A stretch of 45,266 nt of DNA from a virus (Duplodnaviria > Heunggongvirae > Uroviricota > Caudoviricetes), in the IMG/VR virus record IMGVR_UViG_2531839130_000013. One strand, 5' to 3'. A program made the translations under genes and the position numbers. Below the pieces are notes generated by a model. It searched no databases and was not told the origin of the DNA. It worked only from the letters and a program-made list of their open reading frames with translations. Below are positions 1 through 45,266 of the stretch, in pieces. The stretch's first letter is position 1, and every line of letters begins with the position of its first letter.

Positions 1-1119
1 TCAAATAACCAACTTAACCCATTCCTGACCTCGAGTATCGTTATAGCGATCGGTGGTTGCCTGGACTTTATGCCCTAGTAATGTTTTTGTATCGATACCC
101 TGTGCACGGTACAGCCGTTCTGATAGAGAGCGTTGTTCATGAAATGTTGGCGGAGTTTTTCCTGCTGGTGGAATTATCCCAGCCAGATCCCGTGCTTTGG
201 CAAAGTAGTCGCTCAGGTTGTCTTTACTCATCGGCTTCGGTTGTTTCTGGTGCCGACTATGGATTAGATATGGACTTAATATTCTGTCTCGGCACCCATC
301 AATAACTTCTTTTAACGTTATCCCAATGGCATCACAGCGTAGTGTAAGCGGTAACGCCAGACGCATTCCGGTTTTTCCCTGGGTGATATGCAAGTGTTCG
401 TTCCACACATCTGAAAAACGCATGTGGCAAATGTCATCACGGCGCTGACCAGTAACAATCGCAAGAAGCATTGCGTTACGGATAAAGTGTTTTTCAGGCG
501 TTGCATTGTAAATTTTTTGCCAGTCTTCCATGGTGAGCCTGGCTCTGGTTACTTTAGGGATCGGTTTACGGGTAGCCTCCGGAGGATTCCATCCAGGAGG
601 AACTTCCCCTGCATGCTGTGCTTCTTTATAAATATCAACCCATAATCCACGATTTACTCTCGCTGTGCTGACCATGTCTTTATCCAGCCACTCATCCAGT
701 ATTAATGCAAAGTCTCTTACTTCCAGTTCTTTCAATGGGTGGTTTCCCAGACGGGAAACCAGGTATGCAGCCATTCGAGTTTTTTCTTTGTGAGTTGTAG
801 CTGCAATATCTCCATTTTTCAGTCGCGCGTCCTGTATTTTCAGATATCGATCAACCCATGCCTTTAATCTGATGCCCCGACGTTTTGTTGCTGACGGACT
901 TTCATCAATTTTGCGCATGAAATATTCAGCTTCTGCTGCAGCTATTCGCTGATTGGCTGTGGAAGCGATTTTTTCTGCTTTGCCTTTGTCTGTTCCGAGA
1001 CCGTGAAATTTTCCAGTCACAGGGTTTTTATACTGGTAGTAAACCCTGCCAGTTCTGCGATCAAACTTTTCGTAAAGACCGGTTACGTCAGTGCTGTTTT
1101 TTCGTGGCCTCGGTGACAT
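1..1119 (-). CDS. int: Tyrosine-type site-specific integrase (lambda Int family)
   Basis: 372-aa ORF; the stop codon is the first three bases of the window (tca on +). C-terminal catalytic region with HxxR-type motif and C-terminal Tyr (TDRYNDTRG); 5' end overlaps the upstream xis-like ORF as in lambda. Confidence 0.9.
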   Translation of the reverse strand: MSPRPRKNSTDVTGLYEKFDRRTGRVYYQYKNPVTGKFHGLGTDKGKAEKIASTANQRIAAAEAEYFMRKIDESPSATKRRGIRLKAWVDRYLKIQDARLKNGDIAATTHKEKTRMAAYLVSRLGNHPLKELEVRDFALILDEWLDKDMVSTARVNRGLWVDIYKEAQHAGEVPPGWNPPEATRKPIPKVTRARLTMEDWQKIYNATPEKHFIRNAMLLAIVTGQRRDDICHMRFSDVWNEHLHITQGKTGMRLALPLTLRCDAIGITLKEVIDGCRDRILSPYLIHSRHQKQPKPMSKDNLSDYFAKARDLAGIIPPAGKTPPTFHEQRSLSERLYRAQGIDTKTLLGHKVQATTDRYNDTRGQEWVKLVI

Positions 1120-11395: not shown

Positions 11396-12082
11396 ATGAC
11401 CACAATAAATACGTTTATGACAGTTGCTGATTTCAAACGGCCTAAATTGGAGCTCCCAAACGGGGCAAACAAACTACTACTGCACTCTTGCTGTGCTCCA
11501 TGTTCCGGTGAAGTGATGGAGGCGCTTCAGGCCTCGGGAATCGACTACACCATCTTTTTCTACAACCCGAACATTCATCCTCAGAAAGAGTATTTAATTC
11601 GTAAGGATGAGAATATTCGCTTTGCTGAACAACACGGCGTGCAGTTTATCGATGCTGATTACGACACAGACAACTGGTTTGAACGTGCCAAAGGAATGGA
11701 ATGGGAGCCCGAGAGGGGGATCCGTTGTACCATGTGTTTTGACATGCGTTTTGAGCGGACAGCGTTGTACGCTGCTGAAAATGGTTTCAGTGTGATCAGC
11801 AGTTCGCTGGGCATTTCACGCTGGAAAAATATGCAGCAGGTTAACGACTGTGGGCGGCGAGCCGTCGCGCATTATCCGGGAATGGTGTACTGGGATTATA
11901 ACTGGCGCAAGCAGGGCGGCTCGTCCCGTATGATTGAAATCAGCAAGCGCGAAAAATTCTATCAGCAGGAATATTGTGGCTGTGTGTATTCTCTGCGCGA
12001 TACCAATCTACACCGCAAATCTCAGGGACGCCCTCTTATCAAAATTGGTCAACTCCACTACGGTAAAGAAGAGAAGGAGTGA
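11396..12082 (+). CDS. queH: QueH-like protein (DUF208, epoxyqueuosine reductase family)
   Basis: N-terminal [11 protein letters not shown] motif plus downstream conserved Cys (CTMCFD, YCGCV) match the signature of QueH/DUF208 as I recall it; stand-alone gene between replication genes and the hok locus. Confidence 0.6.
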
Positions 12083-12262
12083 TTTTATGGATCACCTTTC
12101 TGATTGATTTCATATTGGCGAGGTAGCAGGAGTTAAGTAGAATTGCTGCGGGTGCTTGAGGCTATCTGTCTCAGGCATGAACACCAAAAGGCAGATAGAG
12201 AAAAGCCCCAGTTAACATTACGCGTCCTGCAAGACGCTTAACATTAATCTGAGGCCATATCT

Positions 12263-12322
12263 ATGCGACACATAGAGATTAGCCTCTTACGGACCGAAAG
12301 GTCAAGGAGAAGCGGGCTATGA
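12263..12322 (+). CDS. Short leader ORF (19 codons) whose stop overlaps the hok ATG (mok-like coupling ORF)
   Basis: atgcgacacatagag... ends in TGA overlapping the hok ATG (cTATGAag); the leader region is rich in inverted repeats typical of hok mRNAs. Confidence 0.3.
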   Translation: MRHIEISLLRTERSRRSGL

Positions 12323-12474
12323 AGCAGCGAAAGGCGATGTTAATCGCCCTGATCGTCATCTGTTTAACCGTCATAGTGACGGCACTGGTAACGAGGAAAG
12401 ACCTCTGCGAGGTACGAATCCGAACCGGCCAGACGGAGGTCGCTGTCTTCACAGCTTACGAACCTGAGGAGTAA
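12319..12474 (+). CDS. hok: Hok/Gef-family type I toxin (51 aa), HokD/RelF-like
   Basis: Hand-translated: MKQRKAMLIALIVICLTVIVTALVTRKDLCEVRIRTGQTEVAVFTAYEPEE, essentially the Hok/RelF sequence; AAGGAGAAG SD upstream; below the size threshold of the ORF track. Confidence 0.85.
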   Translation: MKQRKAMLIALIVICLTVIVTALVTRKDLCEVRIRTGQTEVAVFTAYEPEE

Positions 12475-12544
12475 GAGACCTGGCGGGGGAGAAATCCCTC
12501 GCCACCTCTGATGTGTCAGGCATCCTCAATGCACCCGCACTTAA

Positions 12545-12569
12545 CCCGCTTCGGCGGGTTTTGTTTTTT
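12545..12569 (+). terminator. Intrinsic terminator downstream of hok
   Basis: cccgc-ttcg-gcggg stem-loop followed by an 11-nt T-rich run. Confidence 0.6.
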
Positions 12570-12641
12570 CTGAGCATCCTGGTTTACAATCCACATGCCA
12601 GCCTGAACAACTGGCACCTGCTGCGCCAGCAGAGAAAACAG

Positions 12642-12914
12642 ATGGCGCACAAGACCAAATTACACAATTCTGATACCGTTCGTGCCAGCAGGCACGGGCG
12701 GTGTTCGCACGCATTCAAATATGACTGGTATCAGCACGACCCCTGCACTGAAGAACAGGCCGAATGGCTGATTCATAACTACCGCAGACGTGGGTATGAG
12801 TTTAGGAAAGCCCTCAGCCTCGATTATCGTCACTGGATAATCTACGTCAGACTCCCTTATTCCGAACGCCCACCGCGTCCGTCCCGCACATTCCAGCAAC
12901 GCATCTGGAGGTAA
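12642..12914 (+). CDS. Hypothetical protein (90 aa), in the position of Qin rem
   Basis: Start set at MAHKTKLHN because the longer reading runs through the hok terminator; Cys/His-containing small protein; named by synteny only. Confidence 0.4.
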   Translation: MAHKTKLHNSDTVRASRHGRCSHAFKYDWYQHDPCTEEQAEWLIHNYRRRGYEFRKALSLDYRHWIIYVRLPYSERPPRPSRTFQQRIWR

Positions 12915-37155: not shown

Positions 37156-40100
37156 ATGGGTAAAAGCAGCAGTAAGGGGCACACTCCGCGCGAAGCGAAG
37201 GACAACCTGAAGTCCACGCAGTTGCTGAGTGTGATCGATGCCATCAGCGAAGGGCCGGTTGAAGGTCCGGTGGATGGATTAAAAAGCGTGCTGCTGAACA
37301 GTACGCCAGTGCTGGACAGTGAGGGGAATACCAATATCTCCGGCGTCACGGTGGTGTTCCGGGCCGGTGAGCAGGAGCAGACACCGCCGGAGGGATTTGA
37401 ATCCTCCGGCTCCGAGACGGTGCTGGGTACGGAAGTGAAATACGACACGCCGATCACCCGGACCATCACGTCGGCAAACATTGACCGACTGCGTTTTACC
37501 TTCGGTGTGCAGGCACTGGTGGAAACCACCTCAAAGGGAGACCGGAATCCGTCGGAAGTCCGCCTGCTGGTTCAGATACAACGTAACGGTAGCTGGGTGA
37601 CGGAAAAAGACATCACCATTAAGGGCAAAACCACCTCGCAGTATCTGGCCTCGGTGGTGGTGGATAACCTGCCGCCGCGCCCGTTTAATATCCGGATGCG
37701 CAGGACGACGCCGGACAGCACCACAGACCAGCTGCAGAACAAAACGCTCTGGTCGTCATACACCGAAATCATCGATGTGAAACAGTGCTACCCGAACACG
37801 GCACTGGTCGGCGTGCAGGTGGACTCGGAGCAGTTCGGCAGCCAGCAGGTGAGCCGTAATTATCATCTTCGCGGGCGTATTCTGCAGGTGCCGTCGAACT
37901 ATAACCCGCAGACGCGGCAATACAGCGGTATCTGGGACGGAACGTTTAAGCCAGCATACAGCAATAACATGGCCTGGTGTCTGTGGGATATGCTGACCCA
38001 TCCACGCTACGGCATGGGGAAACGTCTTGGTGCGGCGGATGTGGACAAATGGGCGCTGTATGTCATCGGCCAGTACTGCGACCAGTCAGTGCCGGACGGC
38101 TTTGGCGGCACGGAGCCGCGCATCACCTGTAATGCGTACCTGACCACACAGCGCAAGGCGTGGGATGTGCTCAGTGATTTCTGCTCGGCGATGCGCTGTA
38201 TGCCGGTATGGAACGGGCAGACGCTGACGTTCGTGCAGGACCGACCATCAGATAAGGTGTGGACCTATAACCGCAGTAATGTGGTGATGCCGGATGATGG
38301 CGCGCCGTTCCGCTACAGCTTCAGCGCCCTCAAGGACCGCCATAATGCCGTTGAGGTGAACTGGATTGACCCGGATAACGGCTGGGAGACGGCGACAGAG
38401 CTTGTGGAGGACACGCAGGCCATTCTCCGTTACGGTCGTAACGTCACGAAGATGGATGCTTTTGGCTGTACCAGCCGGGGGCAGGCACACCGCGCCGGGC
38501 TGTGGCTGATTAAAACAGAACTGCTGGAAACGCAGACCGTGGATTTCAGCGTCGGCGCAGAAGGGCTTCGCCATGTACCGGGCGATGTCATTGAAATCTG
38601 CGATGATGACTATGCCGGTATCCGCACCGGCGGGCGCGTGCTGGCGGTAAACAGCCAGACCCAGACGCTGACGCTCGACCGTGAAATCACGCTGCCATCC
38701 TCCGGTACCACGCTGATAAGCCTGGTTGACGGAAGTGGCAATCCGGTCAGCGTGGAGGTTCAGTCCGTCACCGACGGCGTGAAGGTAAAAGTGAGCCGTG
38801 TTCCTGACGGTGTTGCTGAATACAGCGTATGGGGGCTGAAGCTGCCGACGTTGCGCCAGCGCCTGTTCCGCTGTGTGAGTATTCGTGAGAACGATGACGG
38901 CACGCATGCCATCACTGCCGTGCAGCATGTACCGGAAAAAGAAGCCATCGTGGATAACGGGGCGCACTTTGACGGCGACCAGAGCGGCACGGTGAATGGT
39001 GTCACGCCGCCAGCGGTGCAGCACCTGACTGCCGAAGTCACTGCAGACAGCGGGGAGTATCAGGTACTGGCCCGCTGGGACACGCCGAAGGTGGTGAAGG
39101 GCGTGAGCTTCCTGCTTCGCCTGACTGTAACAGCGGATGACGGCAGTGAGCGGCTGGTCAGCACGGCCCGGACGACGGAAACCACTTACCGCTTCACACA
39201 ACTGGCGCTGGGGAACTACAGGCTGACAGTCCGGGCGGTAAATGCGTGGGGACAGCAGGGCGATCCTGCCACCACCACCTTCCGGATTAACGCACCTGCA
39301 AAACCCGCCACCATTGAGCTGACGCCGGGGTATTTTCAGATAACGGCGGTCCCGCGTCTTGCGGTGTATGACCCGACGGTACAGTTTGAATTCTGGTTCT
39401 CAGAAAAACGCATCACGAACACAGCACAGGTGGAAAAATCTGCCCGTTATCTGGGGGCCGGCAGTCAGTGGACTGTCCAGGGGAGCCGGATTAAGCCGGG
39501 GACGGATTTCTGGTTTTACGTGCGAAGCGTCAACCTGGTGGGAAAATCTGCTTTTGTGGAAGCCAGCGGGCAGCCCAGCAATGATGGTGAAGGGTATCTG
39601 GAAATTTTCCGGGGGCTGATAGATGAGACGCTTCTTGGTCAGGCACTGAAAGAGCGCATTGATGCTTCAGCGCTGCGTACGGAGGTCACGCAACTGGAAG
39701 AAGACATCCGTCAGCGGATGGACACGGATATCGCAGAAGTGACCCGGAAAATCGGGAAGGCGGAAAACACTCTCACGCAGCTGGTTGCGAAAAAGAATGA
39801 GGACCAGGCACTGGCCATCGCGCAGGTGAACCAGAAAGTGGACCGGGTGAGCAGTGAAATCTCACAGACTGTCAGCCAGGGGCAGTCAGAAAACGCCCGA
39901 CAGATAGCACAGGTCCGCCAGTACGTGGATAAAAAAGGGAGTGAAATTACCTCGACCACGGATAAAAAGCTGGGTGACCAGGCCGTGACCATACAGCAAA
40001 TCCAGCGGGTTCAGTCAGACACGCGCAATGAGCTGAATGCCATGTATATGCTGAAGGTGCAGAAAACAAAAAACGGTATTCCCTATGTGGCCGGTATTGG

Positions 40101-40857
40101 TGCAGGGATTGAGGATGTTGATGGTCAGACCCTGAGTAACATTCTGCTGCAGGCCGATCGCATTGCGATGATTACCCCGGAGAACGGTAACACCACGCCG
40201 CTGTTTGTGGCGCAGGGGAATCAGCTGTTCATGAACGACGTGTTCCTGAAGCGACTATTTGCGGTGAGCATCACGTCATCCGGTAATCCTCCGGCATTCT
40301 CCATGACACCGGACGGGCGGCTGACGGCGAGAAATGCTGATATCAGCGGTAACGTGAATGCGAATTCCGGGACGCTCAACAACGTCACGATTAATCAGAA
40401 CTGCCGGATCCTTGGAAAACTGTCAGCCAGCCAGATTGAAGGCGATATTGTCAAAACGGTGGGTAAGGCTTTCCCGCGAAATGGAAGTTATGCCAGTGGC
40501 ACTATAACCGTCACGGTTTATGATGATCAGGGATTCGACCGGCAGATTATCATTCCGCCGGTATTATTTCGTGGTACGAAACACCAGAATTTCAACAGTC
40601 ATAACCAACAGTCATACTGGTATTCCACCTGCAAGCTGCAGGTGTTTAAAAACGGGGCTGAGATTTTCCATGAACCGGCAACGGATGTCAGCCGGGTGTT
40701 CTCATCGGTGATAGATATGCCGGCAGGACGGGGTCATGTCACCCTGACGTTTAATGTGTCGTCGACCGGCGCGAACAAATGGACGCCGACAACGTACATC
40801 AGCGATTTACTGGTGGTGGTCATGAAAAAATCCACGGCAGGAATCAGTATCAGCTGA
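37156..40857 (+). CDS. J: Host specificity protein J (central tail fibre)
   Basis: 1233 aa; N-terminus [45 protein letters not shown] typical of lambda gpJ; C-terminal part longer than in lambda. Confidence 0.9.
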
Positions 40858-40924: not shown

Positions 40925-41536
40925 ATGCGCCATATTTTATTTTTTGTCGCTTTTCTGGCAGGAATGGCCCTTCCTGCGCAGGCTGAAGTCGGACACGGTG
41001 CGTTTTCCGTGGGATATGCTCAGGTTCACCCGGGCGGCGTGCCGGCATTGTCCGGTACCGGTGCCCGTACAGGTGATTTAAAAGGGATTAACGTGAAATA
41101 CCGTTATGAATTCACGGACCATGCGGGTGGTATTGTTTCGCTGAGTTATGCGTCGGCGAAAAAAAGCGACACGATGAAGACGGGTGAAAATACGCTCCAT
41201 TATGAAAGCCTGCGCGGTCGTTATGTGAGTCTGATGGCCGGCCCTGTCTGGCAGGTCAGTGAGCAGGTCAGTCTCTATGGCACGGCTGGGATGGCTTACA
41301 CCCGCTGGTCTGACAGTGTTCAGGATTACCGACGTGATGAATTGAAACCGGGGTATGTGAAGGAGACGACCACCGCCAGTGATGGCTATACCGCACGACA
41401 CCTGTCGCTGGCATGGGGTGCGGGTCTTCAGTTCAGCCCGGCAGAAACGGTGACTATTGACCTTGCTTATGAAGGCTCCGGCAGTGGTGACTGGCGCACT
41501 GACGGTTTCATCGTGGGTGTCGGTTATAAGTTCTGA
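40925..41536 (+). CDS. lom: Lom-like outer membrane protein (Ail/Lom/OmpX family)
   Basis: Signal peptide (FLAGMALPAQA) and beta-barrel ending in aromatic residue (GVGYKF); position between J and stf as in lambda; flanked by terminators. Confidence 0.85.
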   Translation: MRHILFFVAFLAGMALPAQAEVGHGAFSVGYAQVHPGGVPALSGTGARTGDLKGINVKYRYEFTDHAGGIVSLSYASAKKSDTMKTGENTLHYESLRGRYVSLMAGPVWQVSEQVSLYGTAGMAYTRWSDSVQDYRRDELKPGYVKETTTASDGYTARHLSLAWGAGLQFSPAETVTIDLAYEGSGSGDWRTDGFIVGVGYKF

Positions 41537-41590: not shown

Positions 41591-41600
41591 TGGGGTGAAT

Positions 41601-43724
41601 ATGGCAGTAAAGATTTCAGGTGTGCTGAAAGACGGGGCGGGTAAGCCTGTCGTAAATTGTGCGATTGAACTGCGGGCCAGAAGAACCAGTCCGACCGTTG
41701 TGGCACACGTTGTCGCCACTTGTGTGACGGACAATAACGGTGCTTATGTGATTGAGGCTGAGCCGGGGTATTACGAGGTTGCGCTTAACCGTAACGGCTG
41801 GCAGCCAACCCGTGTCGGGGATATTTATGTGGCACCGACTGACACACCTGGGACACTGAACGCGTTTCTGGATGCACCAAAGGATGGTGATTTACGTCCG
41901 GAGGTGATGAAGCGTTTTGAGGAAATGGTGGATGCAGTTACCCGGCAGTCAGAGCAGGTCACTGATGACCGTAAAAGAGCAGAGTCGGCAGCGGATACAG
42001 CAACAAACGCAGCGACCTCTGCTCTTGACAGTAAAAATAAGGCAGAAGAGCTGAAAAATCAGGCACAGCAGAGCGCCGAAGCGGCTGCAAAAAGCGAGCA
42101 GAACGCAAAAAGTCACGCTGATAATGCAGCCGGAAGCGCACAACAGACTGCACAGGATGTGACAGCAACCGAAACGGCCCGTGATGACGCAGAGCGTTTT
42201 GCGAATGAGGCAGAAAACAGTGCTCAGGCATCAGGGGCAGCGCGGAATGAATCGGTTGATGCAGCCGGACGCGCCAGTCAGTATAAGGAAGCAGCATCTT
42301 TGGCTGCGACCAGTGCAGAAAATGCGGCAAATGTTGCGCTGGGCCATGAAAATAACGCTGCCGAATACGCCCGGCAGGCGAAGGCCAGCCAGGATGCGAG
42401 CGCAGGCAATGCGCAGGAAGCGAAACAGCAGAGGGACGAGGCGCAACGGATTGTTGATGACCTGAAGGGAAGCAATGCTTCCACAACAGAAAAAGGCCTG
42501 GTGCAACTCTGTAGTGATACAGACAACGACAGCGAGGAACTGGCAGCCACACCAAAAGCCGTCAAAACCGTCATGGACGAGACGAAAACAAAAGCGCCGC
42601 TGGACAGCCCGGCATTCACCGGCACACCCACCACACCAACCCCACCGGACGATGCTGCCGGTCTGGAAACAGCGAACGCGGCATTTGTTCGCAAACTGCT
42701 TGCTGCGCTGGTTGACTCGTCACCGGAAGCCCTGGACACGCTGAACGAGCTGGCAGCAGCGCTGGGCAATGACCCGAACTTTGCGACAACGGTTACTAAA
42801 GCACTGGCAGGTAAACAGCCGCTTAACAATACGTTAACCAATATCAGCAAGGTAGGGGTGGGACAAAACTCTCTCCTTTATTTTGGTGATAACTTTGAGG
42901 CAAAAGCAATTCCATGCAGCAACAAGGCTCGCTTATTACTGTCACGAAACACGCCTGGAGACATGCGCACGGAGCTTGGACTGAAAGCTGCTGCTACGAT
43001 GGAACCCCAGAGCTATATCCGCGACCGCGCACCGGGCAGGCTGGCACTGTCCGGTATGCATGGGTTCGGTCAGGCATTTGCCAGCACCGAAGCCCTGACA
43101 TTTAACGGGCAGGCCGATTTTGTTGAATGGCTGAAAGTGGCCACGCCGGGGCGTTATGCGGTCAGTCTTGCGGATTCTTCCATGCTGCTGGTAGGCACCA
43201 AGAAATTTAACGGCATCATTGATGTGATGTGGTCGCCCTTTGATAACGATGAGTCGGACACAATACGCAAATTCAAAACACTGCTGTGTTTTAACCAGTA
43301 TTACGAAGGTGAGCATAGTATTCATTTCCTGACTTACCGCTTTAGTGGAAACAACTGGAATGCAACAGTAAGCCCCATTATTTACGACGGCGATTCGCTG
43401 GCCTTCCTGCTGTCCAGGACGGCGGGCTCAGGCTCATATTTCAAATACCCGGCAGTGGGTGTTCCAGTGCTGGCTGTTTATCGCGGAACAACTTTCGGGG
43501 ATAAAGAAATCAATATTGGCCTGGGTGATGTGGTGCAGGGGTCACAACTGGGCGGAGTTAATCTTTCGTGCTTAATATCTTCTCCTGGGGTTGGCTCCTA
43601 CAATTCCGCACCGAGTGCAGGAGCTACAGGGTACACTTTCCCGGGGCGTTATATGGCGCTATCCGGGGTCAGGGACTCTAAAGGAATAACCGGTCGTATC
43701 TGCCTGTTTGTGCGCATCGAGTAA
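41601..43724 (+). CDS. stf: Side tail fibre protein (Stf-like) with divergent C-terminal domain
   Basis: N-terminus MAVKISGVLKDGAGKPVVNCAIEL... matches lambda Stf; alanine-rich coiled-coil middle; C-terminal 300 aa unlike lambda. Confidence 0.8.
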   Translation: MAVKISGVLKDGAGKPVVNCAIELRARRTSPTVVAHVVATCVTDNNGAYVIEAEPGYYEVALNRNGWQPTRVGDIYVAPTDTPGTLNAFLDAPKDGDLRPEVMKRFEEMVDAVTRQSEQVTDDRKRAESAADTATNAATSALDSKNKAEELKNQAQQSAEAAAKSEQNAKSHADNAAGSAQQTAQDVTATETARDDAERFANEAENSAQASGAARNESVDAAGRASQYKEAASLAATSAENAANVALGHENNAAEYARQAKASQDASAGNAQEAKQQRDEAQRIVDDLKGSNASTTEKGLVQLCSDTDNDSEELAATPKAVKTVMDETKTKAPLDSPAFTGTPTTPTPPDDAAGLETANAAFVRKLLAALVDSSPEALDTLNELAAALGNDPNFATTVTKALAGKQPLNNTLTNISKVGVGQNSLLYFGDNFEAKAIPCSNKARLLLSRNTPGDMRTELGLKAAATMEPQSYIRDRAPGRLALSGMHGFGQAFASTEALTFNGQADFVEWLKVATPGRYAVSLADSSMLLVGTKKFNGIIDVMWSPFDNDESDTIRKFKTLLCFNQYYEGEHSIHFLTYRFSGNNWNATVSPIIYDGDSLAFLLSRTAGSGSYFKYPAVGVPVLAVYRGTTFGDKEINIGLGDVVQGSQLGGVNLSCLISSPGVGSYNSAPSAGATGYTFPGRYMALSGVRDSKGITGRICLFVRIE

Positions 43725-43737
43725 CGGGGAATAAAAC

Positions 43738-44313
43738 ATGAAAATCAGAGCGGTAAAGGGCATCAGAAACGCCCATTATCTTGAAAATGGTGCGGTTGAC
43801 TGCGAGGTGTTATTTGAAGGTGAAACGGAATTCGTCCCGTATACCGCCATGCAGGATGATACCGCACCGACAGGCCAGCGCATCTGGGAAGAGTTGCAGA
43901 ACGGCAAATGGGGCGAAATCGCCCCTTTCACTGTCACGCCGGAACTTATCGCCGCGGCGAAGGATGCCAAAAAGCAGGAAATCGAGGCATGGCGCACAGA
44001 ACAGGAAGCACTGCCGTTCACCTTTGAATGGAACGGTCGCACCTGGAACGCTGGCCCCGACTCAATGGCCCGTCTTTATCCGGTAGTAATGGCGGCGAAA
44101 TCTGATACGGCACTAACCGCCCTTGCATGGGGTGATGCCGATAATCAACAGGTGAAACTGTCAATGCCGGAACTGGAAGAACTGGCGACAGCAATGGCGC
44201 AGGCACAGGTCGATCGCAATAACGAGATTTATCAGCGTCAGCGGGAGATGAAGGAAGAACTGAATAATCTTGATGATTTACGCTCAATCCGAGCGTTTGA
44301 CGTTACGCAATAA
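43738..44313 (+). CDS. Hypothetical protein downstream of stf (possible tail-fibre accessory protein)
   Basis: 191-aa ORF in the position where lambda has tfa, but the sequence does not resemble Tfa. Confidence 0.45.
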   Translation: MKIRAVKGIRNAHYLENGAVDCEVLFEGETEFVPYTAMQDDTAPTGQRIWEELQNGKWGEIAPFTVTPELIAAAKDAKKQEIEAWRTEQEALPFTFEWNGRTWNAGPDSMARLYPVVMAAKSDTALTALAWGDADNQQVKLSMPELEELATAMAQAQVDRNNEIYQRQREMKEELNNLDDLRSIRAFDVTQ

Positions 44314-44675
44314 AAAAACATTGATATGCCAGCCCCTTGTAAAAATATTGAACATGGACGCTTTGAGTTGAATTGGATTTACATGGGGCACCTTGGGGCA
44401 TATATGGGACATAAAAAGGCCTCAGACAAACAGCAAAATCGAGTTCAGGAGTTTTTAGAAAAAATACAACCATCTTAAAAAAACTTAGAAAACGCCCAGA
44501 AATCCACAGGATGGTAAAAAATATCTATGAATCATGGGTTTCCAGTTATATTCGCTCGGCGCAGCGTTAGTGTTTCATGAAATATTTTTTCCTGAATCAT
44601 CAACGGCAATGGCGTTAATTCTGGCAATGGGAACCTACGGTGCAGGTTATGTGGCACGTATTGTCGGAGCATTTA

Positions 44676-45068
44676 TTTTCGGAAAAATGGGCGACAGACG
44701 CCGCAGGACGTACTCGGAGTAGTAACGCGTATGGTCATTGCGCCGCGAGTGCCAATAACTTCCACCACAGCACCTGCAAGACAAATATTTCCGCAACCTG
44801 TATCTGTAATAACCTTATTATTTGCATAAGCCCATGAGCCTTTGCACATCCAGTAAGGATGGTTAAATGCCCCCTGACTCTCCAGCCACGAAATAAATTG
44901 CGCGGTTGTCCAGATCTGACTATCGCCACCAATATTCAGCCATGCTCTATATGCGCGGCAGGCACCAATATTTTTGGTGAAGGTATCTTTTACCGGAATA
45001 TCTGCACCGTTCTGGTTTTTCTGTAATGCGCCAGAAGCCTGATTTACCGTTTCCTGTAAACCGAGGTT
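44676..45068 (-). pseudogene. Start-less tail-fibre C-terminal coding segment on the minus strand (alternative fibre tip of an invertible segment)
   Basis: Open minus-strand frame with no start codon: ...NGADIPVKDTFTKNIGACRAYRAWLNIGGDSQIWTTAQFISWLESQGAFNHPYWMCKGSWAYANNKVITDTGCGNICLAGAVVEVIGTRGAMTIRVTTPSTS...; its 5' end abuts a gix/pix-like crossover sequence and the adjacent invertase gene. Tail-fibre assignment is by context and composition. Confidence 0.4.
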
Positions 45069-45076
45069 TTAGATAA
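45051..45076. promoter_or_regulatory. Candidate Pin/Gin-type recombination crossover site (pix/gix-like)
   Basis: ttcctgtaaaccgaggttttagataa resembles the gix consensus as I recall it (TTCCTGTAAACCGAGGTTTTGGATAA); about 55 bp upstream of the invertase start. Confidence 0.4.
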
Positions 45077-45130
45077 TGGCCGTATCCGGCCTGCATGGCA
45101 TGATTTGCGCTTTTGGACGGGAGATTCAGT

Positions 45131-45235
45131 GTGCTGATTGGTTATGTAAGGGTATCAACAAATGACCAGAATACAGACCTGCAACGAAACGCTCTTGTTT
45201 GTGCAGGATGTGAACAAATATTTGAAGATAAATAA
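45131..45235 (+). pseudogene. pin: Pin/Gin/Hin-family serine DNA invertase, N-terminal 34 codons ending in a premature TAA
   Basis: GTG start; VLIGYVRVSTNDQNTDLQRNALVCAGCEQIFEDK then TAA where invertases continue LSGTRTDRPGL; the following codons still encode SGTRTGRPGL in frame, indicating a point-mutational stop. Confidence 0.6.
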
Positions 45236-45266
45236 AGCGGAACAAGGACAGGCCGACCTGGATTAA

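Follow-up and report, generated by a model that had tools for sequence, protein, structure and literature searches.

A probable orphan remnant of a Mu-type tail-fibre switch at the right edge of a lambdoid prophage

The window analysed here is a stretch of 45,266 nucleotides (IMG/VR record IMGVR_UViG_2531839130_000013, Caudoviricetes) that holds a lambdoid prophage: the integrase end, early, lysis, head and tail genes, and then J, lom, the side tail fibre gene stf and a gene of the DUF4376 family. This study concerns what follows these genes at the right edge of the window (44314-45266). There, fragments of a host transporter gene, of a phage tail fibre and of a serine DNA invertase lie side by side, together with a single recombination site. 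The initial annotation, made without database searches, had interpreted this arrangement as a decayed Pin-type switch of the fibre encoded by stf. We conclude that the rightmost part of the window (44699-45266) is very probably an orphan, non-functional remnant of a switch of the kind found in the G segment of phage Mu, and that it was once the right arm of a prophage at the potC|potB site.

An intact arm of this kind has the order stf-tfa-(tfa'-stf')-invertase. Inversion between two inverted 26-bp sites swaps the fibre end, together with its chaperone, on the constant part of stf. After inversion, the constant part supplies the fibre N-terminus to a frame that has no start codon of its own. 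In the reaction, invertase dimers bound at both sites come together on a Fis-bound enhancer, located in the 5' portion of the invertase gene, and strand exchange takes place at the central dinucleotide. The Hin invertasome is covered in PMC3798978.

A stretch of 568 bp related to the Mu G segment

The 568 bp from 44699 to 45266 share 94.5% DNA identity with the G segment of phage Mu (genes S/U and S'/U', sites gixL/gixR, invertase gene gin) and 95.8% with phage D108. With phages P88 and PhiR68_1 the identity is about 96%, and with many prophages of Escherichia coli it is 96-97%. The order of the parts is also that of Mu: a start-less S' on the minus strand, gixR, and gin with a GTG start. In the Mu record the matched stretch is annotated as the carboxy-terminal part of S' in G(-) phage, the boundary of the G segment and the serine recombinase Gin. 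Unlike Mu, however, the window has only the right-hand 0.57 kb of a module of ~3 kb. It lacks gixL, the variable part of S, U, U' and the distal part of S'. Its invertase carries nonsense mutations and is truncated in identical relatives, and the host element is a lambdoid prophage.

The invertase gene begins with a GTG codon at 45131, as Mu gin does, and runs on the plus strand to the end of the window, which includes codons 1-45 (45131-45266). It translates as VLIGYVRVSTNDQNTDLQRNALVCAGCEQIFEDK, a stop, and SGTRTGRPGL, invertase sequence that goes on beyond the stop. The stop is a TAA at codon 35 (45233-45235), where the ancestral codon is TTA (Leu35); the mutation is specific to this lineage. 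When the TAA is read as leucine, the fragment matches the Pfam family Resolvase (E=1.4e-10). Aligned with residues 1-64 of Mu Gin, the stub and its continuation in relatives show only three differences: Leu35 to stop, D41G and T57A. The motif of the catalytic serine, YVRVSTNDQ, is kept at codons 5-13, within what is a mere fragment of the N-terminal catalytic domain. A complete invertase gene of ~190 aa, with helix E and a C-terminal helix-turn-helix domain, is absent from the window, where reading ends at TAA35.

Beyond the window, the gene was followed in relatives. Five sequences (L003, L005, L007, L009 and L016) are 100% identical to the window over 43738-45266, and two of them (L003 and L016) read further. 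For L016, the base-by-base match to the window extends as far as 45266, and L003 served as the reference for its tail. Past 45266 the invertase frame of these window-identical relatives is stopped by TGA at codon 65, and beyond ~codon 78 it gives way to the 3' end of a tfa gene. Helix E and the C-terminal DNA-binding domain, ~115 residues, are lost. The window's own genome presumably continues in the same way. From codon 65 on, the reading (MRHLVVLV) appears more Pin-like than Gin-like in comparison with e14 Pin.

What follows in window-identical loci is a minus-strand gene for a class I S-adenosylmethionine (SAM) methyltransferase, which starts ~380 bp past the window's end, then another tfa 3' scrap and the genes potB, potA, pepT, roxA, phoQ and phoP. 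In L003 the class I SAM-dependent methyltransferase gene (11601-12770) lies between two direct copies of the tfa 3' end, the first of which is the piece fused to the invertase stub. It resembles a cargo cassette that entered by recombination at the conserved end of tfa. The stretch from the stub to potB is widespread: at least 80% of it is covered in 1,194 complete E. coli genomes, in which the stub is annotated as a 'recombinase family protein' of ~64 aa.

Over its first ~192 bp, where the enhancer would be expected, the stub is ~97% identical to Mu gin. In Mu, Fis sites lie inside the gin coding region, ~550 bp upstream of the mom start (PMC3378877). Their position maps to ~45230-45260, in the retained part of the stub. 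TAA35 lies in the same zone.

On the minus strand, a frame of 131 codons is open from 45068 to 44676 and has no start codon near its 5' end. The crossover site contains the beginning of this frame (NLGLQETVN...), whose register is that of Mu S'. Over the first 123 codons (44699-45068), 118/123 residues are identical to the variable part of Mu S', which has 320 codons. The underlying DNA is 94.5-97% identical to Mu, D108, P88 and E. coli prophages. The remnant is the proximal 38% of S': 197/320 codons are missing, including the distal receptor-binding portion, and the U' chaperone gene is absent. The last 8 codons of the frame are not fibre sequence at all, but antisense ydfJ. Two fibre ends, each with a chaperone, are thus not to be found here, as 44314-45050 contains no chaperone gene of the Caudo_TAP type. 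Pfam matched no family to either the S' fragment or the ydfJ fragment; hence both pieces were recognised through their identity, at the DNA and protein level, with Mu and E. coli ydfJ.

Between the two coding remnants lies the crossover site. The 26-bp sequence TTCCTGTAAACCGAGGTTTTAGATAA occupies 45051-45076 on the plus strand, 55 bp upstream of the GTG, and has the gixR-type structure TTCCTGTAAACC-GA-GGTTTTAGATAA. It differs from the Mu gix sites by 1/26 bases. Its central GA (45063-45064) coincides with the annotated boundary of the Mu G segment, which maps to 45064. When up to 3 mismatches are allowed, the site occurs nowhere else in the window, and 100 shuffles predict 0 occurrences; its palindromic core AAACCNNGGTTT is present once in the 45 kb. 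A search of the window for a second site, allowing up to 9/26 mismatches to three known site variants, returned one other match, at 549 inside the integrase gene, where shuffles give 1-7. An inverted-repeat search around the region gave chance-level pairs only. The window therefore holds a single site instead of an inverted pair, while its relatives have two. The same site sequence adjoins an intact invertase gene in L001 and the stub in L011, L014 and L015, and each of these four has an additional, inverted site.

With a single site, no invertase of its own and a silent frame cut short, the locus cannot undergo local inversion, nor can the S' remnant acquire a fibre N-terminus. At this level much of the initial annotation stands. 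The GTG start, the TAA at codon 35 and the continued invertase reading are borne out by translation and by the alignment to Gin. The gix/pix-like sequence ~55 bp upstream of the invertase is a unique site one base away from Mu gix, and the wider search for its inverted partner came up as empty as the original one. The start-less, fibre-like frame reported at 44676-45068 exists too, except for its ydfJ-derived end. What does not hold is its description as an alternative fibre C-terminus or tip: the frame is the first part of a variable region whose distal codons and chaperone gene are gone.

The ydfJ-derived block and the relatives at the potC|potB site

To the left of the S' remnant, the window carries material from a different integration site. 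The interval 44314-44533 is the right end of a lambdoid prophage of the ydfJ site, based on the Prokaryotic Genome Annotation Pipeline (PGAP) annotation of the homologous stretch in E. coli E423. A DinI-like pseudogene scrap (~44383-44469, minus strand) is recognised by homology to the E423 annotation only, and its frame is not open in the window. The attR core (18-19 bp) presumably falls within the same interval. Next come 55 codons (165 bp, 44534-44698, plus strand) of the host gene ydfJ, which encodes an MHS-family transporter of the major facilitator superfamily (MFS); they are 96-97% identical to E. coli ydfJ. The fragment corresponds to residues 1-55 of E423 ydfJ with one substitution (D2G), and it starts where ydfJ-integrating prophages truncate the gene. 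In E423 the same ydfJ sequence goes on for 428 codons and is followed by ydfI, ydfZ and rspR. More broadly, 44300-44698 matches 32 genomes at 96-97%, annotated there as a DUF4376 protein, a DinI-like pseudogene and ydfJ with its N-terminus missing. In those 32 genomes ydfI, ydfZ and rspR come after ydfJ, which marks the right end of a prophage integrated in this host gene.

At 44698|44699, codon 55 of the truncated ydfJ meets the middle of S'. In a three-way alignment the identity to ydfJ extends up to 44698 and the identity to S' begins at 44699, with no microhomology to speak of. The joint is thus flush and illegitimate. When 44250-45266 was compared with 5,426 complete E. coli genomes by megablast, none contained the stretch in one piece, and the right-hand matches all began at ~44699. 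The joint was also absent from the GTDB species representatives in an exact 39-mer search. It is found, identical base for base, in 2 IMG/VR contigs and in 8 NCBI assemblies, where the contigs measure 200-667 kb, and single-nucleotide polymorphisms (SNPs) near it are independent. Because it recurs in 10 independent sequences with such SNPs, and because there is no repeat that would mislead an assembler, the joint is not an assembly artefact.

The right arm as it looks when complete can be seen in E. coli 503025, H10407 and 504838. Their prophages at the potC|potB site have the layout int...J-lom-stf-tfa-tfa'-stf'-64-aa recombinase-tfa scrap-methyltransferase-tfa scrap-potB, with tfa'-stf' on the minus strand and two inverted sites. 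One site lies inside stf (TTCCTGTAAACCGAGGTATTCGATAA); the other lies beside the stub and is identical to that of the window. From int to ~39600 in J the window and the 503025 prophage are collinear; the two then diverge until 44699. The exact integrase protein of the window adjoins potC-potD in 6/6 places examined. The host flank is 98.5% identical to that of E. coli H10407, which identifies the source as E. coli in the broad sense. We infer that the prophage of the window sits at the canonical potC|potB site. With the prophages of this site (for example those of enterotoxigenic E. coli (ETEC) H10407 and of strains 503025, 504838, E54 and E8) it shares the site itself, the integrase family, the 64-aa stub, gixR and the downstream scraps. 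These relatives, however, have both crossover sites and the full segment of 3.16 kb, in both orientations, whereas the window is cut at 44699, contains the ydfJ-derived block and has the extra TAA35. By this comparison, the invertible module of the potC|potB site appears to be the direct ancestor type of the remnant.

In these relatives the segment has flipped despite the dead local invertase. Of the complete genomes that share this stub, 130 have the Mu-S'-like end beside it and 160 the other fibre end. The clearest pair is E. coli E54 (L018 2671-5827) and E8 (L019 2646-5802), human isolates from Bangladesh that belong to one deposit series. Between them a segment of 3,157 bp is inverted at 99.87% identity. 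Differences between the sites would by themselves account for its 4 mismatches, and the flanks are 100% identical over 5.9 kb on the right and 405 bp on the left. Both isolates carry the identical stub protein (WP_001421134.1), and their two tfa proteins have swapped positions. Likewise, L015 (3721-6876) and L014 (44607-47763) carry the complete 3.16-kb segment in opposite orientations next to the same dead 64-aa stub. In the two-site relatives the segment has thus flipped recently, probably by means of another invertase of the Gin/Pin family acting in trans.

Such invertases are found in E. coli K-12, where the e14 P segment with pin, pinQ (Qin) and pinR (Rac) likewise place Gin/Pin invertases beside tail-fibre and tfa genes in defective lambdoid prophages. 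Invertases of this type act in trans between prophages, and PinQ has been shown experimentally to flip the e14 segment in trans (PMC12529663). Unlike the window, with its stub and its one site, e14, Qin and Rac have intact invertases, and e14 has two sites.

The fibre genes now in the window are of another kind. The stf gene (41595-43724, plus strand) encodes a side tail fibre of 709 aa with the Pfam families phage_tail_N and Phage_fiber_2. Its partner (43738-44313, plus strand) encodes a tail-fibre-assembly-like DUF4376 protein of 191 aa (PF14301, E=2e-17). Both lie outside the switch. Stf lacks the LGLQETV motif encoded by gixL and has only a generic fibre-repeat motif in common with Mu S. 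No gix-like site occurs in stf, and the chaperone of Stf is the DUF4376 protein instead of one of the Caudo_TAP (U/U') type. Because there is no gix motif, because the chaperone belongs to another family, and because a prophage end and ydfJ lie in between, the stf-tfa pair of the window (41595-44313) never belonged to the switch. It is best read as a different, non-invertible fibre module. The fibre that the prophage now encodes is thus neither of the two alternatives of the switch.

Stf has 662, 707 or 709 aa in close relatives. The 662-aa versions lack ~120 bp at window positions 42139-42259, an alanine-rich repeat region. In their genes the 3' part of stf is ~96.8% identical to the window, and the rest of the tail region up to ~99%, which suggests further mosaicism within stf. 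Upstream of stf are the tail gene J (37156-40857) and lom (40925-41536). In two older drafts (L007 3162-7255 and L008 2799-7120) the tail genes I and J are split by frameshifts into several open reading frames (ORFs), while other relatives have an intact J of 1233 aa. The splits are probably artefacts of sequencing quality and not decay.

At the other end of the window lies the integrase gene int (1-1119, minus strand), with its stop-codon end at position 1. Both window borders are the ends of gene calls. The right one, 45266, is the stop of a spurious ORF of 34 aa (45162-45266), which is out of frame and inside the invertase stub. The IMG/VR provirus L017 ends at the same base. Because the ends match gene-call ends and L017 shares the end base, we take the window as a probable provirus prediction, and the data suggest that its right border was drawn inside the remnant. 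The true prophage, or its scar, runs ~1.7 kb past the window, up to potB. In the interior of the window, an ORF of 349 aa (15858-16907) is followed by genes for tRNA-Met(CAT) and tRNA-Arg(TCT) at 16957-17032 and 17130-17206. This ORF aligns with a stretch of the 503025 prophage that carries a DNA methyltransferase gene; at that place the 503025 prophage has a different set of tRNA genes (tRNA-Ile, Thr, Gly).

Order of decay and alternative readings

The relative order of the lesions follows from their distribution. The TGA at codon 65 and the tfa fusion are present in all potB-site loci, the joint is found only in this lineage, and TAA35 occurs in 8/10 of the joint-carrying sequences (L003, L005-L009, L016 and L017). 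The remaining 2/10 (L004 and L010) have TTA at codon 35 and, like the others, TGA65 and the fusion to the tfa scrap after ~codon 78. Leucine is found at codon 35 in all intact and all stub relatives. Judged by these sequences, TAA35 is a genuine mutation and the third and latest lesion. It is not the inactivating one, because the joint carriers, including the TTA sisters, already have TGA65 and the fusion. Hence the initial description of a decayed Gin/Pin-type module with a broken invertase and a lone site holds, but the TAA is not what broke it.

From this distribution we propose three steps. Long ago, the invertase gene would have lost everything past ~codon 78 through fusion to a tfa 3' scrap and would have gained TGA65. 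Later, a block from a ydfJ-site prophage (stf of 709 aa, DUF4376 chaperone, DinI scrap, prophage end and 165 bp of ydfJ) would have taken the place of the fibre end that the prophage first had, of tfa and tfa', and of the distal 62% of stf'. Homologous recombination in or near J/lom presumably accounts for the left exchange; the right one, at 44698|44699, would have been illegitimate. This replacement would also have removed the second crossover site. Most recently, Leu35 would have changed to TAA.

The mechanism of the replacement is less clear than its result. Candidates are a double exchange, two inversions in succession, and recombination with a phage that entered the cell after aberrant excision. 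Simple aberrant (lambda-bio-like) excision of a ydfJ-site phage is insufficient, since it would join ydfJ to the phage's own left arm. At least one further exchange is needed, because excision alone cannot join ydfJ to the stf' of a different prophage. A present chromosome-scale inversion ending at the joint was also considered and rejected: the int side is at potC-potD and the right flank at potB, both canonical. The canonical state of both flanks is itself pieced together from two ends seen on separate loci and not on a single one. Recombination between ydfJ-site and other prophages, and fragments of the host attB locus inside prophages, have been documented (PMC8112680), so the exchange of a ydfJ block is unremarkable.

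Besides the choice of mechanisms, three points weigh against our interpretation. The window ends at codon 45, and the TGA65 and the C-terminal loss are read from relatives that appear to stand for it, being 100% identical over the last 1.5 kb (L003 and L016). No complete E. coli genome covers at least 80% of the lom-stf-tfa-ydfJ' block, so none of them qualifies as a donor of the whole; E423-type ydfJ prophages share only 43924-44698 with the window. Finally, the left boundary of the block can be placed only approximately, between ~39600 (in J) and 43924.

We nevertheless hold the reading as a remnant to be very probable, as the alternatives fare much worse. The initial annotation saw a Pin-type switch belonging to the window's own stf, with the tip at the end of stf locked on and the minus-strand frame silent. 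The gene order (stf-tfa, start-less minus frame, site, invertase) superficially mimics Mu and e14, which makes such a model attractive. Yet behind the flush joint the end of a prophage and 165 bp of ydfJ separate tfa from the remnant, and stf has neither a gix site nor the motif that one would encode. Moreover its chaperone is not of the U/U' type, the remnant is short of 197/320 S' codons and of U', and intact relatives show the complete segment from which the remnant derives. We consider a frozen switch very unlikely indeed: with 55 codons of ydfJ and a prophage end splitting stf-tfa from the remnant, the switch appears to have been dismantled, not frozen, and nothing here would be able to invert or to be expressed as fibre. 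By the same evidence, the tip of the present Stf, with its DUF4376 chaperone and without LGLQETV, is not one of the alternatives of the switch. It is hardly credible, either, that the joint is a chimera of the ydfJ and potB loci and the TAA a sequencing error. Such an artefact would fit with the absence of the joint from complete RefSeq E. coli genomes and GTDB representatives, and all carriers seen are draft assemblies or provirus cuts. But the 8 NCBI assemblies come from different projects and, like the 2 IMG/VR contigs, carry independent SNPs; the flush joint offers no repeat to mislead an assembler; and TAA and TTA segregate among the carriers.

Alternatively, the remnant may still be a live substrate. 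An intact Gin/Pin invertase elsewhere in the genome would then pair the orphan gixR with the gix sites of other prophages, and large inversions or deletions would result instead of a local flip. The orphan site is identical to the invertase-adjacent sites of two-site relatives, and dead-stub relatives with two sites have flipped precisely and recently (E54 versus E8). PinQ does act in trans on the e14 segment (PMC12529663), and the Mu Fis sites in gin map to the retained part of the stub (PMC3378877). However, no rearrangement ending at 45063/64 was found among the 10 joint carriers. Fis-dependent invertases, as is generally known, also need inverted sites in one supercoiled domain and strongly prefer a spacing on the scale of kilobases. 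We regard this possibility as very unlikely. The broader idea, in which the orphan gixR and the enhancer-bearing stub recombine with distant gix sites and the widespread stub is kept as a cis enhancer for flipping in trans, strikes us as highly improbable. That the stub persists owing to its enhancer is speculation, although consistent with the inversion between E54 and E8.

Implications for annotation and for prophage exchange

Defective prophages are known to carry leftovers of Gin/Pin invertible tail-fibre modules, and decay of this kind is ordinary. Many RefSeq genomes already list the parts of the present remnant, under the names 'recombinase family protein' (64 aa) and incomplete tail fibre protein. 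For annotation, the host range of this prophage should be read from stf (709 aa) and the DUF4376 chaperone alone, and the remnant is properly labelled as a set of pseudogenes rather than as a switch.

The locus also provides a clean, datable case of modular exchange between prophages resident at ydfJ and at potC|potB, in which a piece of a host gene was carried along. As in the published attB-in-prophage sequences (PMC8112680), part of a chromosomal integration locus, here ydfJ and a prophage end, is embedded in another prophage: window positions 44500-44698 hold the ydfJ-type end and 165 bp of ydfJ inside a potC|potB-site prophage. By analogy, the embedded ydfJ scrap might be a candidate secondary target for ydfJ-integrating phages.

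Finally, a broken local invertase alone does not make a frozen switch. This matters whenever phase-variable states are inferred from the integrity of genes.

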